A DNA stretch of 64,000 nt from Lama guanicoe (taxonomy: Eukaryota), in NCBI GenBank assembly GCA_013239625.1, contig MU053881.1, positions 8,517,957 through 8,581,956 of the forward strand. Reading direction: 5' to 3'. Numbering within the stretch: position 1 is the first letter of the stretch; every line of letters begins with the position of its first letter. Under the pieces are notes generated by a model. It made no database searches. It saw only the letters and a list, made by a program, of their open reading frames with translations, and had not been told where the DNA came from. Shown here one piece after another: positions 560 through 64,000 of the stretch. The translations under genes were made by a program, and so were the position numbers.

Positions 560-1278
560 CCAAGGAGTAGATTTTTTTTTTAAGTGATATTTTGTTTTGC
601 AGCATTAACCAAATGCAAAGATGTAACTACCTTGGCAGAATTTATCTCCCCGCCGCCGGACCACCACCCGGGAAGAAATTTGTTTTTAGCTTTTAAGAAA
701 GCCAAACAGGAGACTATTTTTTTTTTAAAGAAAAAGACTGTTTTTAGCTTTAAAATTTTTTCTCCCCCTTACAGCCCCTTCCCCCCCAATTCTGCCTTGG
801 GGTCTGGAGGAGTAAGGAGAGGCAAGGACTCTGAGAAGTCATATTTGAGACTTAGAGACCACCTCATCAACCGTCTTCTCTCGCCGATGGAACACTTGCA
901 TCTCAGAGAGGTCAAGCGATTTGCCTGGGGCCACAGGGGCAGGACGAGAAGGCAGGAATCCCTTCTCGGGTGTGCAAGAGGGAAATTCCAGAGAGCCGTA
1001 AGTGGATGCCCTCTGCTCAGCTCTTCCCCCAAACTTTCAAAGCCGGCCTACCATAACCGTGAGCTCAGAATCCCTCAGCACCTCAGGCTCAGGGGGAGCC
1101 CCACCTCAGCAGGGTGCAGAGAGGATGACCAGAAGACACAAGGCGCAACATTAAAACCAGTGACCTGCAAGGGGAACAAAAGTTAACAGCTCCACTAAGC
1201 ACCAGTATGTTTTTATTTTTTTTGAAAATGTCAGAAATATTTTGTTTTTAATCTCATTTTGTATATTTATTATTATTT

Positions 1279-1535
1279 TTTATTGAAGTATAGTCAGTTT
1301 ACAATGTTGTGCCAATTTCTGGTGTACAGCACAATGCTTCAGTCATCCATGGATGTATACATAGTCATTTTCATATTCTTCTTCACTGTGAGCTACTACA
1401 AGATATTGAATATGTTACCCTGTGCTATACAGTATAAACTTGTTTATCTGTTTCAGATATACCAGTCAGTATCTGCAAATCTTGAACTCCCAGTTTATCC
1501 CTTCCCACCCCTTTCCCGCCTGGCAGCCACAAATC
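1279..1535 (-). mobile_element. L1 3' UTR end (lineage-specific young L1 type), part of a U6/L1 chimera
   Basis: Minus strand reads ...tgtacaccagaaattggcacaacattgtaaactgactatacttcAATAAA, a typical cetartiodactyl L1 3' terminus; related ends occur at 10.4, 40.9 and 63.6 kb. Confidence 0.85.
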
Positions 1536-1643
1536 AAAACTGATGGAACACTTCACAGATTTGCGTATCATCCTTGCACAGGGGCCATGCTAATCCTCTC
1601 TGTATCGTTCCAGTTTTAGTATATGTGCTGCCAAAGCGAGCAC
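1536..1643 (-). pseudogene. Full-length U6 snRNA retropseudogene fused to an L1 3' end
   Basis: Reverse complement GTGCTCGCTTTGGCAGCACATATACTAAAACTGGAACGATACAGAGAGGATTAGCATGGCCCCTGTGCAAGGATGATACGCAAATCTGTGAAGTGTTCCATCAGTTTT is U6 with roughly ten differences, several at CpGs; the TSD abuts its 5' end. Confidence 0.95.
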
Positions 1644-3599
1644 AAGCACCAGTGTGGTTCTCCTTCCTCTCCATTACTTGCCAGTCAACACGGGCCCCGC
1701 AGGCCTGATGCTGGGGCCGTGGACAGGCCACAGGACTGAGCTCAAATATAATGGCACTGGTTTTTTTTTTTCACCTTCACTGTCTTTTTAAAGGCTCCCT
1801 TCTATTTGCGGCAAGAGAGATTACTAATTTCCCATTTGTGAATGTGGCTAAAAATTTTTCAAACTGGGTAAATTTGAAGTCAGTATTAAGTAAGCAATAG
1901 CACAGGTGGATATAGCAAAGAAAAGTGGTCCACATTATATAATACTTAAATCTAGGAAATGATGCTGTGGCCAAGTCAGTTTTCCACGGAAGCTCTACTG
2001 CATTCCCTCTTCCAAGGGTAAAGAATGACTGTTGTTTGAGAAACTTTCTTCAGCAGTGTTAGCCTCTCAGAGCCCCGTGGGAGTTCCTAGATGTATGACC
2101 TGGGGTGAGTTAGCAGTGCCCTCAGTGTTCAACTGCTAATAGCACGGTGGACCCAGGAGCTGCTGGGACCAAAAATGGGGGAGGACACAGAAGTCTGAAC
2201 TTGTGTCATGTTTAGGAGGCCAAGGGACAATGGGCTGCCCAGTTCAACAACATAGTCAGAGTCCCTGGGGCAACTGATCCTGAGTGGGGTATGGGGAAGG
2301 AAAGTGAGTCAGGACCACAAGTTTGGAGGTTAGGACTTCAGAGCTGGTAAAGAACCTGGCTTAAGGCAGAGTGGTGGAAAGGTCAAAACGCTCAAGCAAG
2401 TCACACCTCCGGGCCTCAAAGTTTGTCTTATGTTTGACAGTAGCAATTGGGCTCTGATCTTCTATGTCCTTTCCAACTTTTAAGAGTTCTACTATTACTC
2501 CCCTTTCAAGCAAACCATTTGTTTGACAAATAGGGAAACTAAGGCTCAGAGGTTCAAGCAGCATGCCCAAGGGCCGCTTTTCAACATTAAAAATTTCTCT
2601 TCCGGATTAGATTAATGAGACATTCAGCATAGCACTGAGCACTGAGTAGACACCCAGGCAATGCTGAATAAATGAACCAAAGTGCTCAGAGAAACCACAG
2701 GGAATCTCAGCTCACATTTTCTTTCTGCTTTTTCTTTTTCTTAACCCTCACCTTACTACACACCCCATCTTGGACTTCTGGGACCTCCACCTCAACCCTG
2801 CAAGAGGAAGGGTCAAAAAAATTCACCTTCAATGCTTTACAGGCACCTGATACCCAAGGTCACAGCCATCAAGTGAAAATTCCATATTCCTGAGACACTT
2901 TGACCACAGAGGTGACAGCAAAGGACAACAAATTGGTCCCAGAGGGTGGTCCTCCCCTCCCCTCAGAATATACATAGGGAGGGGGTGCGTGTGTGCAAAG
3001 AAATACCAAGCAGTCGAAACCAGGAGAAAGTCTGGAGGCCAAGAGCCACACCAGCCATCTCACACCACCCGCTTCAGCAAAGAAAAAAATCCGGTGCTCC
3101 AGCAGGCATGGTGCCCACCAAGGTCAGGACGCGCTGGTGCAGGGCTGAGGAGCTGGGGTCCCCAGAGGAGGGGAGGGAGGAGAAAGAGGAGATGGGCATG
3201 GCTTTTCGGAAGCCTCTCACCTGCCTCTATATCCTAACAGCTTCCAAGTTGCTGTGAGATTCCTGGAGAACCAGCCTCCCAGATCAGCCCTCCCCCGCGC
3301 CCTCTTTTCCTTCCCACTCCCGGCCTCCAGGCCCCCATACTGCTCCTGTGCTCTCTCAGAGCCTCCGAGGCACCTGTCAAAAACACACTTGGGGCTGCCT
3401 TCCCCTGCACGCAGTGTCCTTCCTCCAGCAGTCTGCCACTGAACCCTCCGTGCCTCCTACCCGCTCCAAACCAGATGCTTCCCCATCCTCCCTCCTCCCC
3501 CACCCTGTGCTGGGGAAAGCCTCCCCGGGAAGCCCCAGCATCACTCTGCTAGGTCGCTCCCCTGGCCCCCGCCGGACCTAACTAAAGGGGGTGGGGAGG

Positions 3600-27292: not shown

Positions 27293-27637
27293 TCACCCTC
27301 CCTTGGGAGCTGGGGCAGGCTGGCTGGTTTTCCAGTGCTCCGAGGGTGTGGCCTGTCCACCTCGTAACTGTGCCACTCACCGAAGAAGGTGGTGGGGAGG
27401 TTCACCACCTGGCCGGCAACTGCACCCAGGCCTCCCCCCTTACCCCGCCTCTCCGCTGCTGCAGAAAAGCCACTCTGCCTGCTGACGGTTCGGCAGTTGC
27501 CTTACCCACTTCAGAGCCAGGAACACCCCGACCTGGAGGGCAGGGCGTTTACCTGAGGAGCTGTGAACCCCGCTTCTGGGACCTGTGTGTCTTTGCGTCC
27601 AGTGCCCTGGATGTTCATTCACTTCCTGGGGTCAGGA

Positions 27638-27800
27638 CCTTGCTCCTCAGAGTACGGCCAGCAGCTGGGGAGTCCCCGGGCCCCTGTCCCATTAGAAAAG
27701 CGGAATCTCCGGCCTCACTCTTGACCTACTGAGTCAGAAGCTGCATTTCAACAGGCACTTGAGGTGGCTTGTGTGCATATTAATGTCTGGGAAGCACCGG
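27638..27800 (-). mobile_element. MER5A1-like hAT MITE
   Basis: ccttgctcctcagagt...gacctactgagtcagaagctgcatttcaacagg...gtgcatattaatgtctgggaagcacc is reverse MER5A1. Confidence 0.65.
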
Positions 27801-29345: not shown

Positions 29346-31348
29346 TGAACTTCATTTGGCAAGTATTGAAGGCAGCGTCTATTAAAGGCCGGTCAGTGTG
29401 CTTAGAAGCGCGAGACCCAGTGCTGAGCTCGACGTGATGATGGTGAAGCCAGTGCAGGACCCCTGGGCGGGGCCGGCTGCAGGAGGCCGGCTCGTTACGG
29501 AAGCGGGGTTCCCTGAGCGTGTGGAGTGCAGAGAGTCGTCTGGCTCCTGAGATGCTTTTTTCTCAGGTGCCTGCTCTTCAAGGAGAGGTCAAGAGAGAGC
29601 CCTAGGTGCTCAGAGTAAGACGGCCCTTCTCTGCTAGGGGTCCAGACTGAGTGGGCCCCACTGTTACTCTCACCGCCTCTTTCCCTGAATTCCTTCTTAG
29701 CGATTTCATTATCCAAGCTGTTGATCCTTCCAGCATCCCTGCCTCTTAGGTTTTTGATGATCCTTCCCCCACTAACTCTCCTGCTCATCCTCTGGACCTT
29801 TGTCATCACCAATCAGTTGGATCCCCCGTGATAGTCATTTCCTGTACGTCACCCTCTGACCAGCACCTGGACTCTTTCTAGTTCACTCCCCTTTTGTCAC
29901 CTGACACCCATGTTCCCTGACCTCGGACCTTCAACCTACCCTAAGCTTCTTTTCTGTCCCTCAGCATCTTGGTCTCGCTTCTGCTCTTTCCTAGCACACA
30001 TCCCGTGGTCGATCATTACTCATTCCCTCATGTCTGTTCTCAGAGCCTTGCCCTTTTCTCACTTCAGCACACTTCCTTGCCGAAATCACAATTTTGGTTA
30101 AATCAGAGAAGGCTCTGCCTTTCCGTGTTTGTCCTTGTGTGGCCCAAGGGGGCAGCAGACATGAATGTAACTGTGCCGACTGGCGTCTCTAAATTCCCAA
30201 CCACAATCCCAGTTGTGCCTTCCCGCTTGCCTGGCAATCCGACTCGTCCCGTCCTCCGTTCAGTCCTTGCCCCATTCTGCTGGGTGAGTCTGCCTCTTCT
30301 CATCTCTCCTAAAACCTCCCACACCTGCTTTCCCTGCTTCACTGTAGCAGCTCACCTTCTTTCCTCTTCTCCTAAGAAAACTGGTGAAGCCAGAGGGGAC
30401 TTCCCCTAAACTCTCATCATATTTACCACCATCGGCACCCATACTCCCCACCTCCTTCCCCTCGTTACTCTAGATGAGCTTTCAAATCAAACCTGCACTA
30501 GGTCACGTTCATTTTTGCCCACTCAAGGATGTCACTCCAGCAACCCCCGCCCCCCATCAGTTTACTCCCTCTTCTAATGGATCAGCCCCATCAGCTTACA
30601 AACACGCAACTGAATGTCCACCTTAAAAATTCCTCCCTTGTTCCTGCTTCTCCCTTTAGCCATCACCCGTTTCTCATCCCCTTTACAAGAACTTCTCAAA
30701 CTCACAATAATTCTCTATACTCAGCTGTCTCCCATTCTCCTCTGAACCAGGCTTCGCTCCCAAATGCTCATGAAAACAACTCTCATCAAGGCCACAGATG
30801 ACCTCCATGTTGCTAAGTCCAATGTTGGCTGTGGTCCTCATCTCATTTGACCTGTCAGAAGTATCTGACCAACTGAACGCTCCTGCCCCTCTCTCTTTTT
30901 CTTGGCTTTCTGAACATGACAGTCTCCTATTGTCCCTCTCGTACCTTAGTGGCCACTCCGTGTCCCTCTTTGGTTCCTCCTCATCTCCCTGATCTTAATG
31001 TCAGGATATCCTAGACTCAGTCTATGAACTTTTTCTCCACTCTACCTGCTCTTACAAACATGGTGACCATATCCAGCCTCAGGGCCCTAAATACCATTTA
31101 CATGCTGGTGCCGACTCCAAAGTCTGTATCTCCGTCCAGGACCTCTCCCTAGGCTCCAAACAAACATATCTAACTACACTTTAAACTTCTCTCCAAACCA
31201 GAGTTGAACTCCTCATCTTCCTCCTCACACCTGTTCCACCCAATCTTTTCCATCCCGGGTTAGGGCAACTCCATCCTTCCAGCTACCATCCTTGGCTTCT
31301 TTTTCTTACTCTCCATGTGTAAACCATCAGTAAATATGTCACTTTATA

Positions 31349-31480
31349 GGGCAGAGGGTATATAGCTCAGTGGTAGAACATGTGCTTAGCATGCAGGAGG
31401 TCCTGGGTTCAATCCCAAGTACCTCCATTAAAAAAAAACCTAATAAAATAAACCTAATTACCCCCCCCACCAGAAAAGAA
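31349..31480 (+). mobile_element. Camelid vic-1-type tRNA-derived SINE
   Basis: ggcagagggtatatagctcagtggtagaacatgtgcttagcatgcaggaggtcctgggttcaatcccaagtacctcc with A/B boxes, then aaataaacctaattaccccccc tail. Confidence 0.85.
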
Positions 31481-36255: not shown

Positions 36256-36390
36256 GGGGAGAGCATAGCTCAGCAGTGGAGCGCGTGCCTATAGCATGCA
36301 CGAGGTCCTGGGTTCAATCCCCAGTACCTCCGTTAAAGAGAAATAAATAAAAACCTCATTAATCACCCCCCCAAAAAATTTAAAAAAAAA
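36256..36390 (+). mobile_element. Camelid vic-1-type SINE with TSD
   Basis: ggggagagcatagctcagcagtggagcgcgtgcctatagcatgcacgaggtcctgggttcaatccccagtacctcc; TSD aagactcat(t/g)tag on both sides. Confidence 0.9.
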
Positions 36391-37114: not shown

Positions 37115-37232
37115 TTTTTTTGGGAGGGGTGAGGTAAATAGGTTTATTTATTGTTACTATTTTTTAATGGAGGTGCTGGGGATTGAACCCAGGACCTTGT
37201 GCATGCTCTACCACTGAGCTCCACCCTCCCCC
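37115..37232 (-). mobile_element. Camelid vic-1-type SINE
   Basis: ggaggtgctggggattgaacccaggaccttgtgcatgctctaccactgagct; approximate TSD ccctta(t/c)ctttt. Confidence 0.85.
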
Positions 37233-38808: not shown

Positions 38809-40707
<1,899 letters not shown>

Positions 40708-40810
40708 TCAATTCAGAAGTCATGAAAGCTGCAGTAGTCTAGACCAGAGATTACAGGTGAGCTGACCTCCTCGGGCAGGCTGCTCTGTGGGGTCACGGTG
40801 ACTACTTAAG

Positions 40811-41242
40811 AGCAATGCTTCCTAAACTTTAACGGGCATGCTAAATACCCAGGGATCTTGTTAAAAGGCAGATTTTTTTTTTAATGGAAGTATAGTGAGT
40901 TTACAATGCATCGATTTCTGGTGTACAGCACAGTAGTTCAGTCATACATGAACACAACGTATATTCATTGTCATAGTCTTTTTCACCGTGGGTTACTACA
41001 AGATATTGAATACAGTTCCCTGTGCTGTACAGTATGAACTTGTTAATTGGATTTTGTGAGAATCCTGTATGTTGGAATGAGACCCTCTGCCAGAGTTCAG
41101 TAGGCATCCCGTGCGATTCAGTGGGTCTGTAGACGTAATTCTTGGTGTATTTGTGGGAGAGGGCGAGCTGTGAGTCCCTCTACTCTGCCATCTTGGCTCC
41201 ACCCTCAAAAGTGTGCTTGGACCGCACTTTGAGTAGTAAGGG
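40811..41242 (+). mobile_element. MER5A1-like MITE split by the mini-L1 (left arm 40811-40874, right arm ~41215-41242)
   Basis: gcaatgcttcctaaactttaacgggcatgc...ggatcttgttaaaaggcagatt and tggaccgcactttgagtagtaagg match the two ends of MER5A1 as recalled. Confidence 0.65.
40873..41206 (-). mobile_element. Bipartite mini-L1: L1 5'UTR start joined directly to an L1 3' end and poly(A)
   Basis: Minus strand gagggtggagccaagatggcagagtagagggactcacagctcgccctctcccacaaatacacc... (L1 5' end), then aacaagttcatactgtacagcacagggaactgtattcaatatcttgtag...ctatacttccattaaaaaaaaaa (L1 3' end). Confidence 0.8.
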
Positions 41243-44265: not shown

Positions 44266-47200
44266 TTTCAAGTTTTACGTGCATGTCCTTAATCCGTTTC
44301 AGGTTACTATTTATGAGTGGTCTGAGGCAGGGGTCTAGGCTTCATTCTTTTACATGTGAATATCCAGTTTTCACAACACCGTTCATTGAAGAGACTGTCT
44401 TTTCTCCACTGAGTACTCTTGGCACCTCTGTCAAGTACAGTTGGCCATATAAGCTTGAACTTACTCCATTCTATTCCATTGATCCATATGGCCAGTGCCA
44501 TACTGTTGTGATGACTTAATAGTATAGCTTGAAACCAGGAAGTGTGATGCCTTCTGTGTTGTTACTCTTTCTTAGGAGTTCTTTGGCCATCAGGGCCTTT
44601 TATGGTTCCATATAAATTTAAAAAAATTTTTGTCTACTTCTATAAAAAATGCCACTGGAATCTTAATAGGGATGGAATTGAATCTATGGATTCAGTTTTG
44701 GTAGTATTGACATTTTAACAATCGTAATTCTTCCAATCCATGAAACTGGGACACCTTTCCGTTTATTTGTCTTCTGTGATTTCTTCTATCAGTGTCTTGT
44801 ATTTTTCAAAGTAGAAATCTTCCACCTCCTTATTAAATTTATTCCTAAGTGTATTAATAGTTTTGGTGCTACTGCAAATAGTATCTTTTTCTCCATTTCT
44901 TTTTCAGATCACCTGTGAGTGTATGTATAGAAACACTGATTTTTGTTTAATGTTAATTCTGTATCCTGCACCCTTACAAAATTTTTTGATTAGATCTAAC
45001 CATTTTCTGGTTGAGTTTTTAGGATTTTCTATGTATACAATCATGTCATCTGCAAAGAGAGACAATTTCATTTCTTCCTTTCCAGTTCTGATATCTTTAT
45101 TTTTCTTGCCTGGCTGCTTGGCTGAAACTTCCAGTACTATGTTGAATAGGAGTGGTGAGAATGGGCACCCTTGTCTTGATCTTGATCTTATGGGAAAAGC
45201 TTTCAACCTTTTACTGTTGATTATGACGTATCTGTGGGCTTGTTATATCATGACCTTTATTATGTTGAGGTATGTTCTGCCTGTACCTAATTTGTTAAGA
45301 GTTTTTATTAAAGACAGGTGTTGAATTCTCTTAAATGCTTTCTCTGCATACACGCTTTTCCTTTCATTCTGTTAACGTGGTGTATCACACTAATTAAATT
45401 ATTCTGCACATGTTGCACCACGCTTGCATCCCAGGGACAAGTCCCACTTGATCATGGTGCGTGGCCCTTTTACTGTGCTGCTGAATCTGCTTTGCCACTG
45501 TTTTACTGAGAATTTCTGCATATATTCATCAGGGATATTGGTCTGTAGTTTTTTTTTGTGTGTTTTTGTTGTTTTTTTGATAGTGTCCTTTTTTTGCTTT
45601 TCATATCAGGGTAATGCTGGCCTTGTGAAAATGAGCTTGGGGGAAGTGTTCCCTCCTATGATTTTTTTTTTTTTTGGAAGAGTTTTAGAAGGATTGGTGT
45701 TAATTCTTCTTAAAATGTTTGGGAAGATACACCAGTGAAGCCATCTGGTCCTGAGATTGTCTTCATTGGGAGGTTTTTGATTACGGATTCACTCTCCTTC
45801 TGAGTAACTGGTCTGTTCAGATTTTCTATTTCTTAGTGATGCGGTCTTGGCAACTTGAATGTTTCTAACAATTCTTCCATTTCTTTTAGGTTATTCAGTC
45901 TGTTGCTGTATGGTTGTTTAGAGGAGCCTCCTACGATTCTTTGTATTTCTGTAGTATAAGTTGTAACTTTTCCTTCTTCATTTATAACTTTGTGGATTTG
46001 GGTCCCTGCTCTTTTTTTTCTTGGTCGGTGTACCTAAGGGTTTGTCAGTTTTGTTGATCTTTTTAAAGAACCAACTATGAGTTTGTTTTATATTACCTAT
46101 TGTTTTCCTGTTCTGTATTTTATTTATTTCTTCTCTTCCCTATTTCCTTCCTTCTGGTAACCTTGGGTTCAGTTTGTTCTTTTTCTAGTTTGTTAAGGCA
46201 TATAGAGTTAGTTTGTTTCTCTGGAATCTTTCTTGCTTCTACTGTAGGTGTTTGTTGCTGTGAACTTCACTCTTAAAACTGCTTTTGCTGCATCCCATGA
46301 GGTTTGGTATATTGTATTTCCATTTCCATTTGTCTCAAGAGACTTTTTAATTTCCTCTTTAATTTGTTTTTGATCCATTGGCTGTTAAGGAGAGTATTTT
46401 AAAATTTCTATGCATTTGTGAATTTTCTGGTTTTCCTCCTGTTACTGCTTTCTAGTTTCAGACCACTGTGGTCAGAGAAGACACCTGCTATGATGTCCGT
46501 CTGCTTGAATTTACTAAGAGTTGTTTAGTGGCTCAGCATATGGTTTATCTTAGAAAACGTTCCATGTGAACTTGAAGAATGTGTATTCTGCTGTTGTCAG
46601 ATAGCACGTTATGTCTATGTCTGTTAGGTCTGTTTTAGCTTTAGTGTTGTTCAAATCTGCTGTCTCCTTATTGATTCTGTGTCTGAATGATCTATCCATT
46701 GTTGACAGTGGGGTATTAAAGTTCCCAGCTACTATTGTATTGCTATTTATTTCTCTTTTTAGCTGTTGTTGTTTTATATATTTAAATGCTTCAGTGTGGG
46801 GTGTGTAAATATTTATGCTTGTTATATCTTTTCAATAGATTGACCAACCTCTTTATCAGTATATGATGATCTTTTTTTTTTTTAAGTATGGCTTTTTGTC
46901 CTTTATTTCAATTTTTGGGGGGTAATTTTTAAATTTATCTTCTTAATAGGGGAACTGGGGATTGAACCCAGGACCTTGTGTGTGCTAGGTACGAACTCTA
47001 CCACTGAGCTATATACCCTTCCCCCATAGTATATGATGATCTTTTGTTTCTTTTTACCATTTTTAGTTTCAAGTCTCTTTCGCTTGATATAATATAACTA
47101 TCCCTGCTTTTTGAGGGGATTACTATTAGCTTGAAATATCTTTTTCCATCCCTTCACTCTCAGGCTATACATATCTTTAAGGCTAAACTGAGTATCATAT

Positions 47201-51550: not shown

Positions 51551-51710
51551 GTGCAGACAGAACAACTCGCTATAAATTTAATATTAGCTTAAATAATGCA
51601 TAATTAGAAGGGTAAGCCTCTGCAAACACATTAAATAATGTATTCCCCAGGCAAACATTACTTTTGGATGACTTGCTGTTTTGGGTGGCGGCGAGGTGGG
51701 AAGGTAGAAA
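51551..51710 (+). repeat. Arm 1 of a ~160-bp diverged inverted repeat (partner 53071-53223)
   Basis: Roughly 80% identity by eye with the reverse complement of 53071-53223; identical core attagaagggtaagcctctgcaaacac. Confidence 0.9.
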
Positions 51711-52719: not shown

Positions 52720-53320
52720 GCCCTGATCCCTTGACCTTACCACCCCCAGCTAGTTTGCTCCAGCCACACTGGCTAGCCTTCTGCTCAGGATATAAGCAAC
52801 AGTTTCTTCTGCCTCAGGGCCTTTGCGTATGCTGGAACCCTAGCACAGAAGGCTTTCCTCCCGTTCCTTGCCTGGAAAATTCCTACTCTTCATTCAGTTC
52901 TCAGCCCAAATGTCATTATCTTAGCACAGCCTAACCTAGATCAGATATTCCTTGCTATCTCAGCTGCATTTTTTTCCTTCAGAGCACCCATCGCAATCTC
53001 TTTATATTATTTGTGGTTTATTTGATTATTAACTATTTCCCCTTGCTACAGCACAAGCTCCATGAGGGTCTTTCCACTTTTCCACTGCACCATCAAAACA
53101 GCACGTCATCCAAAAATCACATGTGCTTGGGGGATACGTTGCTGAACGTGTTTGCAGAGGCTTACCCTTCTAATGACATATTATTTAAGGTAATATTAAA
53201 TTTGTAGCAAGTTCTGCCTGCACAGGCCCTTCTCGTAATTCAGTGTCTTGTCTTCTCACGACTAGACCCTCAGTGCCTAGTACAGTGCCAGGAACATAAT
53301 AGGTGTTTGAAAAAATGAAA
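52720..53320 (+). mobile_element. L2 3' end, interrupted at ~53070-53240 by the inverted copy
   Basis: ctccagccacactggctagcctt...gcctcagggcctttgc...aagctccatgaggg [insert] tgtcttgtcttctcac...gtgcctagtacagtgccaggaacataataggtg. Confidence 0.8.
53071..53223 (-). repeat. Arm 2 of the inverted repeat
   Basis: Two ORF-track entries on opposite strands end in near-identical peptides (…NVFAEAYPSN…LFK.ILNL). Confidence 0.9.
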
Positions 53321-59751: not shown

Positions 59752-60522
<771 letters not shown>

Positions 60523-62529: not shown

Positions 62530-64000
62530 TTAAAAATGAGAACAGATGAAGCCCAAAATTAAGAGAAGGAAGAGCACTTAAGTAAATTAAATAAAACTGA
62601 AAAAAAAATAGCAAAGAGTCACTGAAACCAAGAGCTGGTCAATTGACAAACCCTTAGCTAGACTTAACAAGAAAAACAAAATCTGAAATGAAAGGGAAAA
62701 AAATCACAATTGCGACCCACAAAAATATAAAAGATCGTAAGGGTGCTATGAACAATCAGGTACCAGCACATGGACGGCAGGGAAGAAGTGGCTCAATGTC
62801 TAGAAACACACAACATACCAGGATTGAGTAAGGAACAAATGAAAAAATCTGAACAGACTAATCACTAGGAGGAAGACCGAACCGGTAATCAATCAAAAAG
62901 CTCCCACCGAACAAAAGTCCAGGATCACCCGGCTTCACTGGCAAATTCTACTAAGTAACATTCAAGGAAGAATTAATACCAACCCTTCCGAAAAATAAAG
63001 AGGAGGAAATACTCTAAAGTCATTTTACAAGGCCAGCATTACCCTTATACCAAAACCAGACAAGGACACCACAAGAAAAAAAAAATTAAAAGCCAGTATC
63101 TCTCCACATAAATCAAAAATCCTCAACAAAATATTAGCAGACTAAATTCAACAGTACGTTAAAAGGCACATACACCATGATCAAGGGAGGGTTCATTCCA
63201 GGGACGCAAGGTGGTTCCCATCTGCCAGCCAGTCAGCGTGAAACACCACAGGAATAAAAGGGAGGAGACAAACCACGTGATCCTGCCAAGAGATGCAGAA
63301 AAAGCATCTGACAGAACTCAACGTCCATTTATGAGAAAAACACTCAACAAAGTGCGTGTAGAGGGAACATACCTTGACATAATAAAGGCCATATATGACA
63401 GGCCCACAGCTAACATCATACTCAATGGTAAAAGGCTGAAAAATGTCCCTCTAAGACCAGAAACAAGACAAAGGATGCCACCTTTTTCAACAAAGTATTC
63501 GAAGTCCAACCCAGAGCAACTGGGCAAGAAAAAAAGGCATCTAAATTTAAAAAGGTAGAAGTTAAACTGTCACTATATATAAAAATAGATTTAAAATAAT
63601 TTCTTCTGTATAGCACATGGAACCATATTTAATATCTTGTAATAACTTCTTTTAATGAAAAAATATGAAAACAAATATACGTATGTATATGCATGACTGG
63701 GACATTGTGCTGTGCACCAGAAATCAACACACTGTAACTGACTGTACTTCAACTGAAAAAAAAAAAGTTAAACTGTCATTATTTGTAGATGACATCATAG
63801 GTACATAAAACTCTAAAAACACCACCAAAAAAACCCTGTCAGAACTAATAAACAAATTCAGTACAGTTGCAGGATACAAAATCAATATACAAAAAAAAAA
63901 TCTGTTGCTTTTCTATATATATTAATAACCAACAACCAGAAACAAATTTTAAAAAATTTATAATTGCATCAAAAGAATAAGACACTAGGTATAAATTTAA
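62530..64000 (+). mobile_element. Degenerate L1 ORF2 region, running off the window
   Basis: aaagtccaggatcacccggcttcactggcaaattcta...; remnant DAEKASDRTQRPFMRKTLNK...YLDIIKAIYDRPTANIILNG. Confidence 0.92.
63576..63764 (+). mobile_element. Younger L1 3'-end fragment nested within the older L1, with a 17-bp TSD
   Basis: ctgtatagcacatggaacc...ctgtacttcaactgaaaaaaaaaa flanked by aagttaaactgtca(c/t)ta at 63559-63575 and 63765-63781. Confidence 0.88.

Follow-up and report, generated by a model that had tools for sequence, protein, structure and literature searches.

Of 6,609 full-length primate L1s, 131 are spliced L1 retrocopies (SpIREs; Larson et al. 2018, PMC5860796). As described in that text they form two classes, in which splicing takes place either within the 5'UTR or from the 5'UTR into ORF1, and ORF2 is kept. 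SpIREs generally, if not universally, carry target site duplications (TSDs) of 6-25 bp, and in human SpIREs most promoter activity is lost when no more than the first 97 nt of the leader remain. The same paper treats it as established that L1 proteins mobilise non-coding and spliced RNAs in trans. LINE derivatives that consist of the two ends of their parent and carry no ORF are, in the accessible portion of another survey (Kojima 2018, PMC5786205), reported only from the RTE, Ingi, Vingi and R2 clades, and are ascribed to internal deletion. Examples include Bov-A, RTESINE1/2, WALLSI3, RIME, NARTc and the Vingi-1_EE derivatives. In addition, non-classical, endonuclease-independent L1 insertions have been described that are accompanied by the loss of target DNA and by a few extra letters at the flanks (Sen et al. 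2007, PMC1920257).

The element described here, referred to as the mini-L1, lies in an intron of TENM2, in sense orientation to the gene, within a window of 64 kb (the whole stretch of 64,000 nucleotides that was analysed). It is an insert of 334 nt on the minus strand (41206-40873), in which an L1 5' head of 159 nt is followed in the same orientation, with no gap between them, by an L1 3' tail of 175 nt (Table 1). The insert contains no L1 ORF, and stops interrupt all three frames. This agrees with an earlier note on this DNA, which had recognised a bipartite L1 of about 335 nt with promoter end and tail only and with both ORFs absent. The note had also placed the insert sense to TENM2, about 255 bp upstream of a large exon, and this position was confirmed, as the exon ending at 40617 encodes teneurin-2 on the minus strand (E 2e-178) and is 255 nt away from the L1 tail. 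The ATTAAA of the tail lies in TENM2 sense, 260 nt before this exon, and is a candidate signal for premature polyadenylation. No Rfam match falls on 40873-41206, the five Rfam matches of the window lying elsewhere, which leaves the insert with no tRNA, 7SL or 5S head; judged by its sequence, the mini-L1 is not a Pol III SINE. Within the 64-kb window, the gapped head-plus-tail pattern found no second match, and no second L1 head is present.

Table 1. Features of the mini-L1 locus, in coordinates of the 64-kb window
Feature	Positions	Strand	Remarks
L1 5'UTR head	41048..41206	-	159 nt; runs from the start of the element to the putative splice donor; placed by contig alignments and, by eye, from pig L1 starts
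Head/tail joint, inferred exon-exon junction	41047..41048	-	donor side +/-1 nt; tail homology begins after AG; contigs bridge
L1 3'UTR tail	40873..41047	-	175 nt; ATTAAA 40885-40880; 10 A 40882-40873
Left MITE arm (MER5A-like)	41214..41241	-	aligns to 27638-27663
7 nt between left MITE arm and L1 head	41207..41213	-	no significant TSD
Right MITE arm	40816..40872	-	aligns to 27738-27796; about 67-74 nt of the MITE middle missing
TENM2 large exon: splice acceptor (40620-40618) and translated part	39802..40620	-	protein match

The mini-L1 resembles the published SpIREs in that an internal part of the L1 RNA appears to have been removed at a recurrent joint, in its poly(A) end (ATTAAA, then 10 A), and in a putative donor near the start of the 5'UTR, at nt 97 in human and at about nt 160 in the mini-L1. 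Like the 5'UTR/ORF1 class of SpIREs (PMC5860796), it would depend on protein supplied in trans. It differs from SpIREs, which keep ORF2, in that its acceptor lies in the 3'UTR and neither ORF is left in its 334 nt; moreover, this copy has no TSD and its parent is a non-primate L1. The mini-L1 thus probably works like a SpIRE and belongs to neither of the SpIRE classes described in that text; a GT at the place of the putative donor is seen in pig L1 heads only. With the bipartite LINEs it shares the presence of LINE 5' and 3' ends alone without an ORF, the retention of the extreme 5' end, a putative Pol II origin and putative mobilisation in trans, whereas its descent from L1 and its splice-like borders set it apart from them, and it is no more than a candidate for self-propagation. 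HAL1 (PMC5786205) is similarly an internally reduced, non-autonomous derivative of a mammalian L1, but it retains ORF1, while the mini-L1 has no ORF. The likeness to non-classical L1 insertions, consisting of the loss of target DNA, the few extra nucleotides at the flank and also the missing TSD, concerns only the insertion site of the TENM2 copy, which differs in keeping its poly(A). The part covered here of a survey of transposable elements in Camelus (PMC8605555) mentions no such element, although its supplements may include a consensus of this kind, and the available part of PMC13174262 contains no camelid case. A literature search, with most subscription papers and the Repbase and Dfam entries outside its scope, found no paper on a spliced camelid L1 or on an L1 spliced from the 5'UTR to the 3'UTR.

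The joint between head and tail was followed in four of 24 public sequencing runs, aligned at 80% likeness. Organisms A and B contributed DNA-like contigs, organism E a run that may be RNA, and the fourth run is RNA. For A as well as B, the joint is spanned by a 130-nt contig that has one gap and no other letter, and an assembly artefact is therefore rejected. The contigs listed are the longest 32 of 31,709 pieces, a choice that favours long alignments and does not represent a frequency, and bridging was counted by a 31-nt rule. Two more of these 32 contigs bridge by this rule: one from run X15 (record 11), with 51 nt on the tail side, 119 on the head side, 22 other letters and 7 gaps, and one from run X8 (record 26), with 33 and 111 nt, 21 other letters and 8 gaps. 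Both represent other loci, since they are too diverged for the TENM2 copy, whose own contigs show no other letter. Two weaker contigs of run X15 extend no more than 26 nt (record 12) and 8 nt (record 13) beyond the joint; runs X1 and X16 contributed no bridging contig from another locus to the pieces listed. An L1 start and a tail also occur on one contig, in the right order, at four further joints (41031>41174, 41045>41142, 41045>41148 and 41051>41135; the letters between were not read). The alignments thus support a recurrence of the same joint at other loci, with at least two firm and at least two weaker contigs among the 32 listed, as the earlier note had thought possible. The contigs reveal neither RNA starts nor strand, and neither they nor the small word shares of RNA runs were counted as expression. 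The only hit of the head-plus-tail pattern in metagenomes (L001) is a chance match without L1 sequence. That pattern gave no match in viral contigs, a collection with little host DNA; the L1-head pattern gave none in prokaryote genomes or viral contigs, and with so little host DNA in these collections the blanks say nothing.

On the donor side, the head is high-copy in all four runs, where contig pieces reach 41203-41210, and by eye it resembles the starts of pig L1 consensus sequences (PMC6501411 supplement). Its homology ends sharply. Among the 32 pieces listed, nine unjoined heads continue for 7-306 unaligned letters, and these stop matching at 41048 (five), 41049 (one) or 41051 (three) and none lower; two of the nine may be one locus in two organisms. 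Seven other listed heads stop at 41063-41080, and two end with their contig and are hence uninformative. In four of the five pig heads shown in the supplement (L1B1, L1B3, L1B4 and L1C1), the 11 nt that correspond to the end of the mini-L1 head are directly followed by GT; L1A7 has AT at this place. The GT comes after nt 161 in L1B4, against 159 nt in the mini-L1 head, in an alignment made by eye that may be shifted by one base and in which pig stands in for the camelid parent L1. The insert (40873-41206) was also compared with the letter that most other copies have; 33 rows were taken, of which 26 are majority rows, and 69 further rows were left out. Of its changes, 19 run from weak to strong and 4 from strong to weak (p 0.003), an excess that fits GC-biased gene conversion or subfamily differences. 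The changes on the sense strand have no strand bias (9 A>G, 7 T>C), which rules out ADAR editing of this copy. The four T before the head are too few to be used as a 5' poly(T) (PMC2837659).

On the acceptor side, the tail matches three further L1 3' ends in the window at 74-80% identity (E 4e-38, 6e-23 and 6e-23). When anchored at the joint, the closest of these matches 27/30 letters after the joint and 11/30 before it; the other two match 15/30 and 12/30 letters downstream without gaps, and carry small indels or changes in this part. The homology is directly preceded by CAG, CAG and TAG in these three tails, and the consensus of loose ends at 41044 (368-383 contigs in two DNA runs) has the same AG context. 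Judged against the branch-point consensus, a CTGAC in the closest tail, with its A at -19, is branch-point-like. The acceptor lacks a pyrimidine tract, and the branch-like motif is missing from the older-type tail of the window. In the pig L1 tails shown in the PMC6501411 supplement, GG stands where the acceptor AG is expected, and so this AG may be lineage-specific.

Other L1 material in the window includes a short L1 3' end (63559-63779, plus strand) with a perfect 14-bp TSD, nested in an older ORF2 fragment and 5'-truncated only 16 nt before the acceptor point of the mini-L1 tail. Two ORF2 fragments of older L1s, in opposite orientations (44922-45885 and 62783-63921), are 66-72% alike. A U6/L1 chimeric retrocopy of a known kind (1255-1659, minus strand) consists of U6 (model positions 1-105 at 1643-1537, 100.6 bits) fused to about 260 nt of an L1 3' end, with a 16-bp TSD (14/16 letters); it served as a tail reference and TSD control. 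The window further contains four related tRNA-headed SINE copies (31345-31477, 36259-36388, 37116-37228 and 46902-47028), which presumably are copies of the camelid SINE Vic-1. In the part of PMC8605555 covered, camelid SINEs are listed as almost only MIR. A 232-bp tandem duplication at 59752-60215 (96% alike) is either recent or an assembly error, and an inverted repeat pair (51551-51683 and 53094-53223) is 82% alike over 133 nt at a distance of 1.4 kb.

The mini-L1 is probably a retrocopy of an L1 RNA that was spliced from the 5'UTR to the 3'UTR and mobilised in trans, and would represent a SpIRE-like class that has lost both ORFs. A full-length camelid L1 would be transcribed from its own promoter. 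In its RNA, the spliceosome would use a donor some 160 nt from the start of the 5'UTR and an AG acceptor that precedes the poly(A) by some 165 nt, and everything between them, including the remaining leader and both ORF1 and ORF2, would leave as one intron. The resulting polyadenylated, protein-less RNA of 0.3 kb would then be copied by the ORF1p and ORF2p of another L1, in the manner of a processed pseudogene. Splicing and copying would have happened more than once, producing several copies that share one joint and are perhaps dead ends, and the TENM2 copy would have landed in a MITE, of which about 70 bp were lost then or later. Points that count in favour of splicing are the AG before all three window tails and the loose ends at 41044, the CTGAC, the sharp end of the head, the pig GT, the joints at other loci, the four additional start-to-tail joints and the SpIRE precedent. 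Counted against it are a GT taken from pig, where L1A7 has AT, the lack of a pyrimidine tract, the older tail without a branch motif, and AAAAT near the joint on both sides, which would allow a microhomology jump, as well as the missing TSD and the fact that only two other-locus contigs among the 32 listed satisfy the 31-nt rule. On balance, the spliced-L1 option offered in the earlier note gains support from the AG at the tail start, the sharp head end, the pig GT and the recurrence.

A further-reaching proposal, akin to the SINE-like element with a Pol II promoter in the earlier note and considered rather unlikely here, is that of a self-propagating non-autonomous family. One or a few founders, made by splicing or deletion and endowed with a promoter-active head of 159 nt, would themselves have been the masters, as for Bov-A and RTESINE with respect to RTE LINEs. 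On this proposal, a donor conserved in cetartiodactyls and a lineage-specific camelid acceptor would cause L1 to shed its coding body as an intron, and some of the 0.3-kb copies would have become masters of the first ORF-less, bipartite, Pol II SINE-like family in the L1 clade, a family arising from splicing whose copies would not be dead on arrival. The joint does recur at other loci, the extreme 5' end is kept as in the bipartite non-autonomous LINEs (PMC5786205), and one human SpIRE is described as having regained activity through a host promoter (PMC13174262, in the part available). However, the promoter activity of spliced human leaders is strongly reduced and PMC5860796 speaks of them as dead ends, and the ORF-less bipartite LINEs reported in the accessible part of PMC5786205 all come from the four clades named above. 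Moreover, the summed depth at 41071, the most subfamily-specific part of the head, amounts to only about 37-51 single-copy depths, a value that is not a copy number and that combines joined and unjoined heads at 80% likeness. The insert also has no special RNA fold (z -0.14, with 40 of 100 shuffles equally good).

It is more improbable still that splicing played no part, and that the joint instead reflects a jump of ORF2p along the L1 RNA at the AAAAT microhomology or a DNA deletion in a full-length L1, its recurrence being due to a preferred breakpoint or to duplication. The head has AAAAT immediately ahead of the joint, ordinary tails have it immediately ahead of the AG, the insertion is already atypical in having no TSD and in its target loss, and the donor GT is known from pig, not from a camelid. 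Nevertheless, six of the nine unjoined heads among the 32 pieces listed match to 41048-41049, past the AAAAT, indicating that these letters are derived from the head. Furthermore, the tail starts exactly after the AG, other loci share the joint, and a random break that fits both AG and GT, with one shift allowed, is expected by arithmetic in about 1 in 100 cases. Of the two kinds of border that the earlier note had set against each other, GT...AG is borne out in its AG, present before 3/3 tails of the window; a GT stands at the matching place in 4/5 of the pig heads shown, and AAAAT also lies near the joint.

The insertion site is itself unusual. A single paralogous MITE aligns with the two flanks in the same order, with scores of 26 and 30, as compared with a 99th percentile of 22 and 27 and maxima of 31 and 30 for about 1000 random pieces. 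This paralogue (27635-27800, plus strand), an intact, diverged MITE of the same kind, served as the reference. Between its arms there are 74 nt, where the mini-L1 locus has 7 unassigned nt, and about 70 bp of the MITE are therefore missing, in keeping with the split MER5A1-like MITE of the earlier note. We take the interrupted element to be MER5A1 (MER5A-like). The note had seen no clear TSD, and none was found: the best candidate, a degenerate 12-bp repeat with 8/12 letters in agreement, is equalled by 160 of 400 random flanks and is thus attributed to chance. The missing TSD is not simply a matter of age, since two other L1 tails of the window retain clear ones (14/16 and 14/14 letters). That some 70 bp of target DNA were lost on insertion, as in the target-site deletion of the earlier note, is compatible with the flanks, and a later deletion would fit them equally well. 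In the organisms of runs X15 and X16, a flank contig that is 95% alike stops at 40871, beside the tail; the flank 40640-40825 has no cover in X1 and X8, for which a filter may be responsible. An alternative is that two L1s inserted into the MITE at a distance of 70 bp and that a later deletion fused them, taking away the body of the first, the middle of the MITE and the beginning of the second. This would account at once for the missing MITE middle and the missing TSD, but is very improbable, as it explains neither the same joint elsewhere nor the AG boundary. As a variant of this reading, recombination of a spliced copy with a nearby tail is a possible source of the deletion alone. The TENM2 copy is old and damaged in its flanks, and is a weak example of its class.

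A splice origin of the mini-L1 would extend L1 splicing beyond the primate classes to the removal of both ORFs. If true, such splicing would act as a brake on L1 activity and, at the same time, as a direct route to ORF-less bipartite elements, which were so far placed in four other LINE clades only. With these copies it becomes testable how a non-coding RNA that has the ends of L1 alone competes in trans for L1 proteins, and whether spliced L1 copies are always dead ends.
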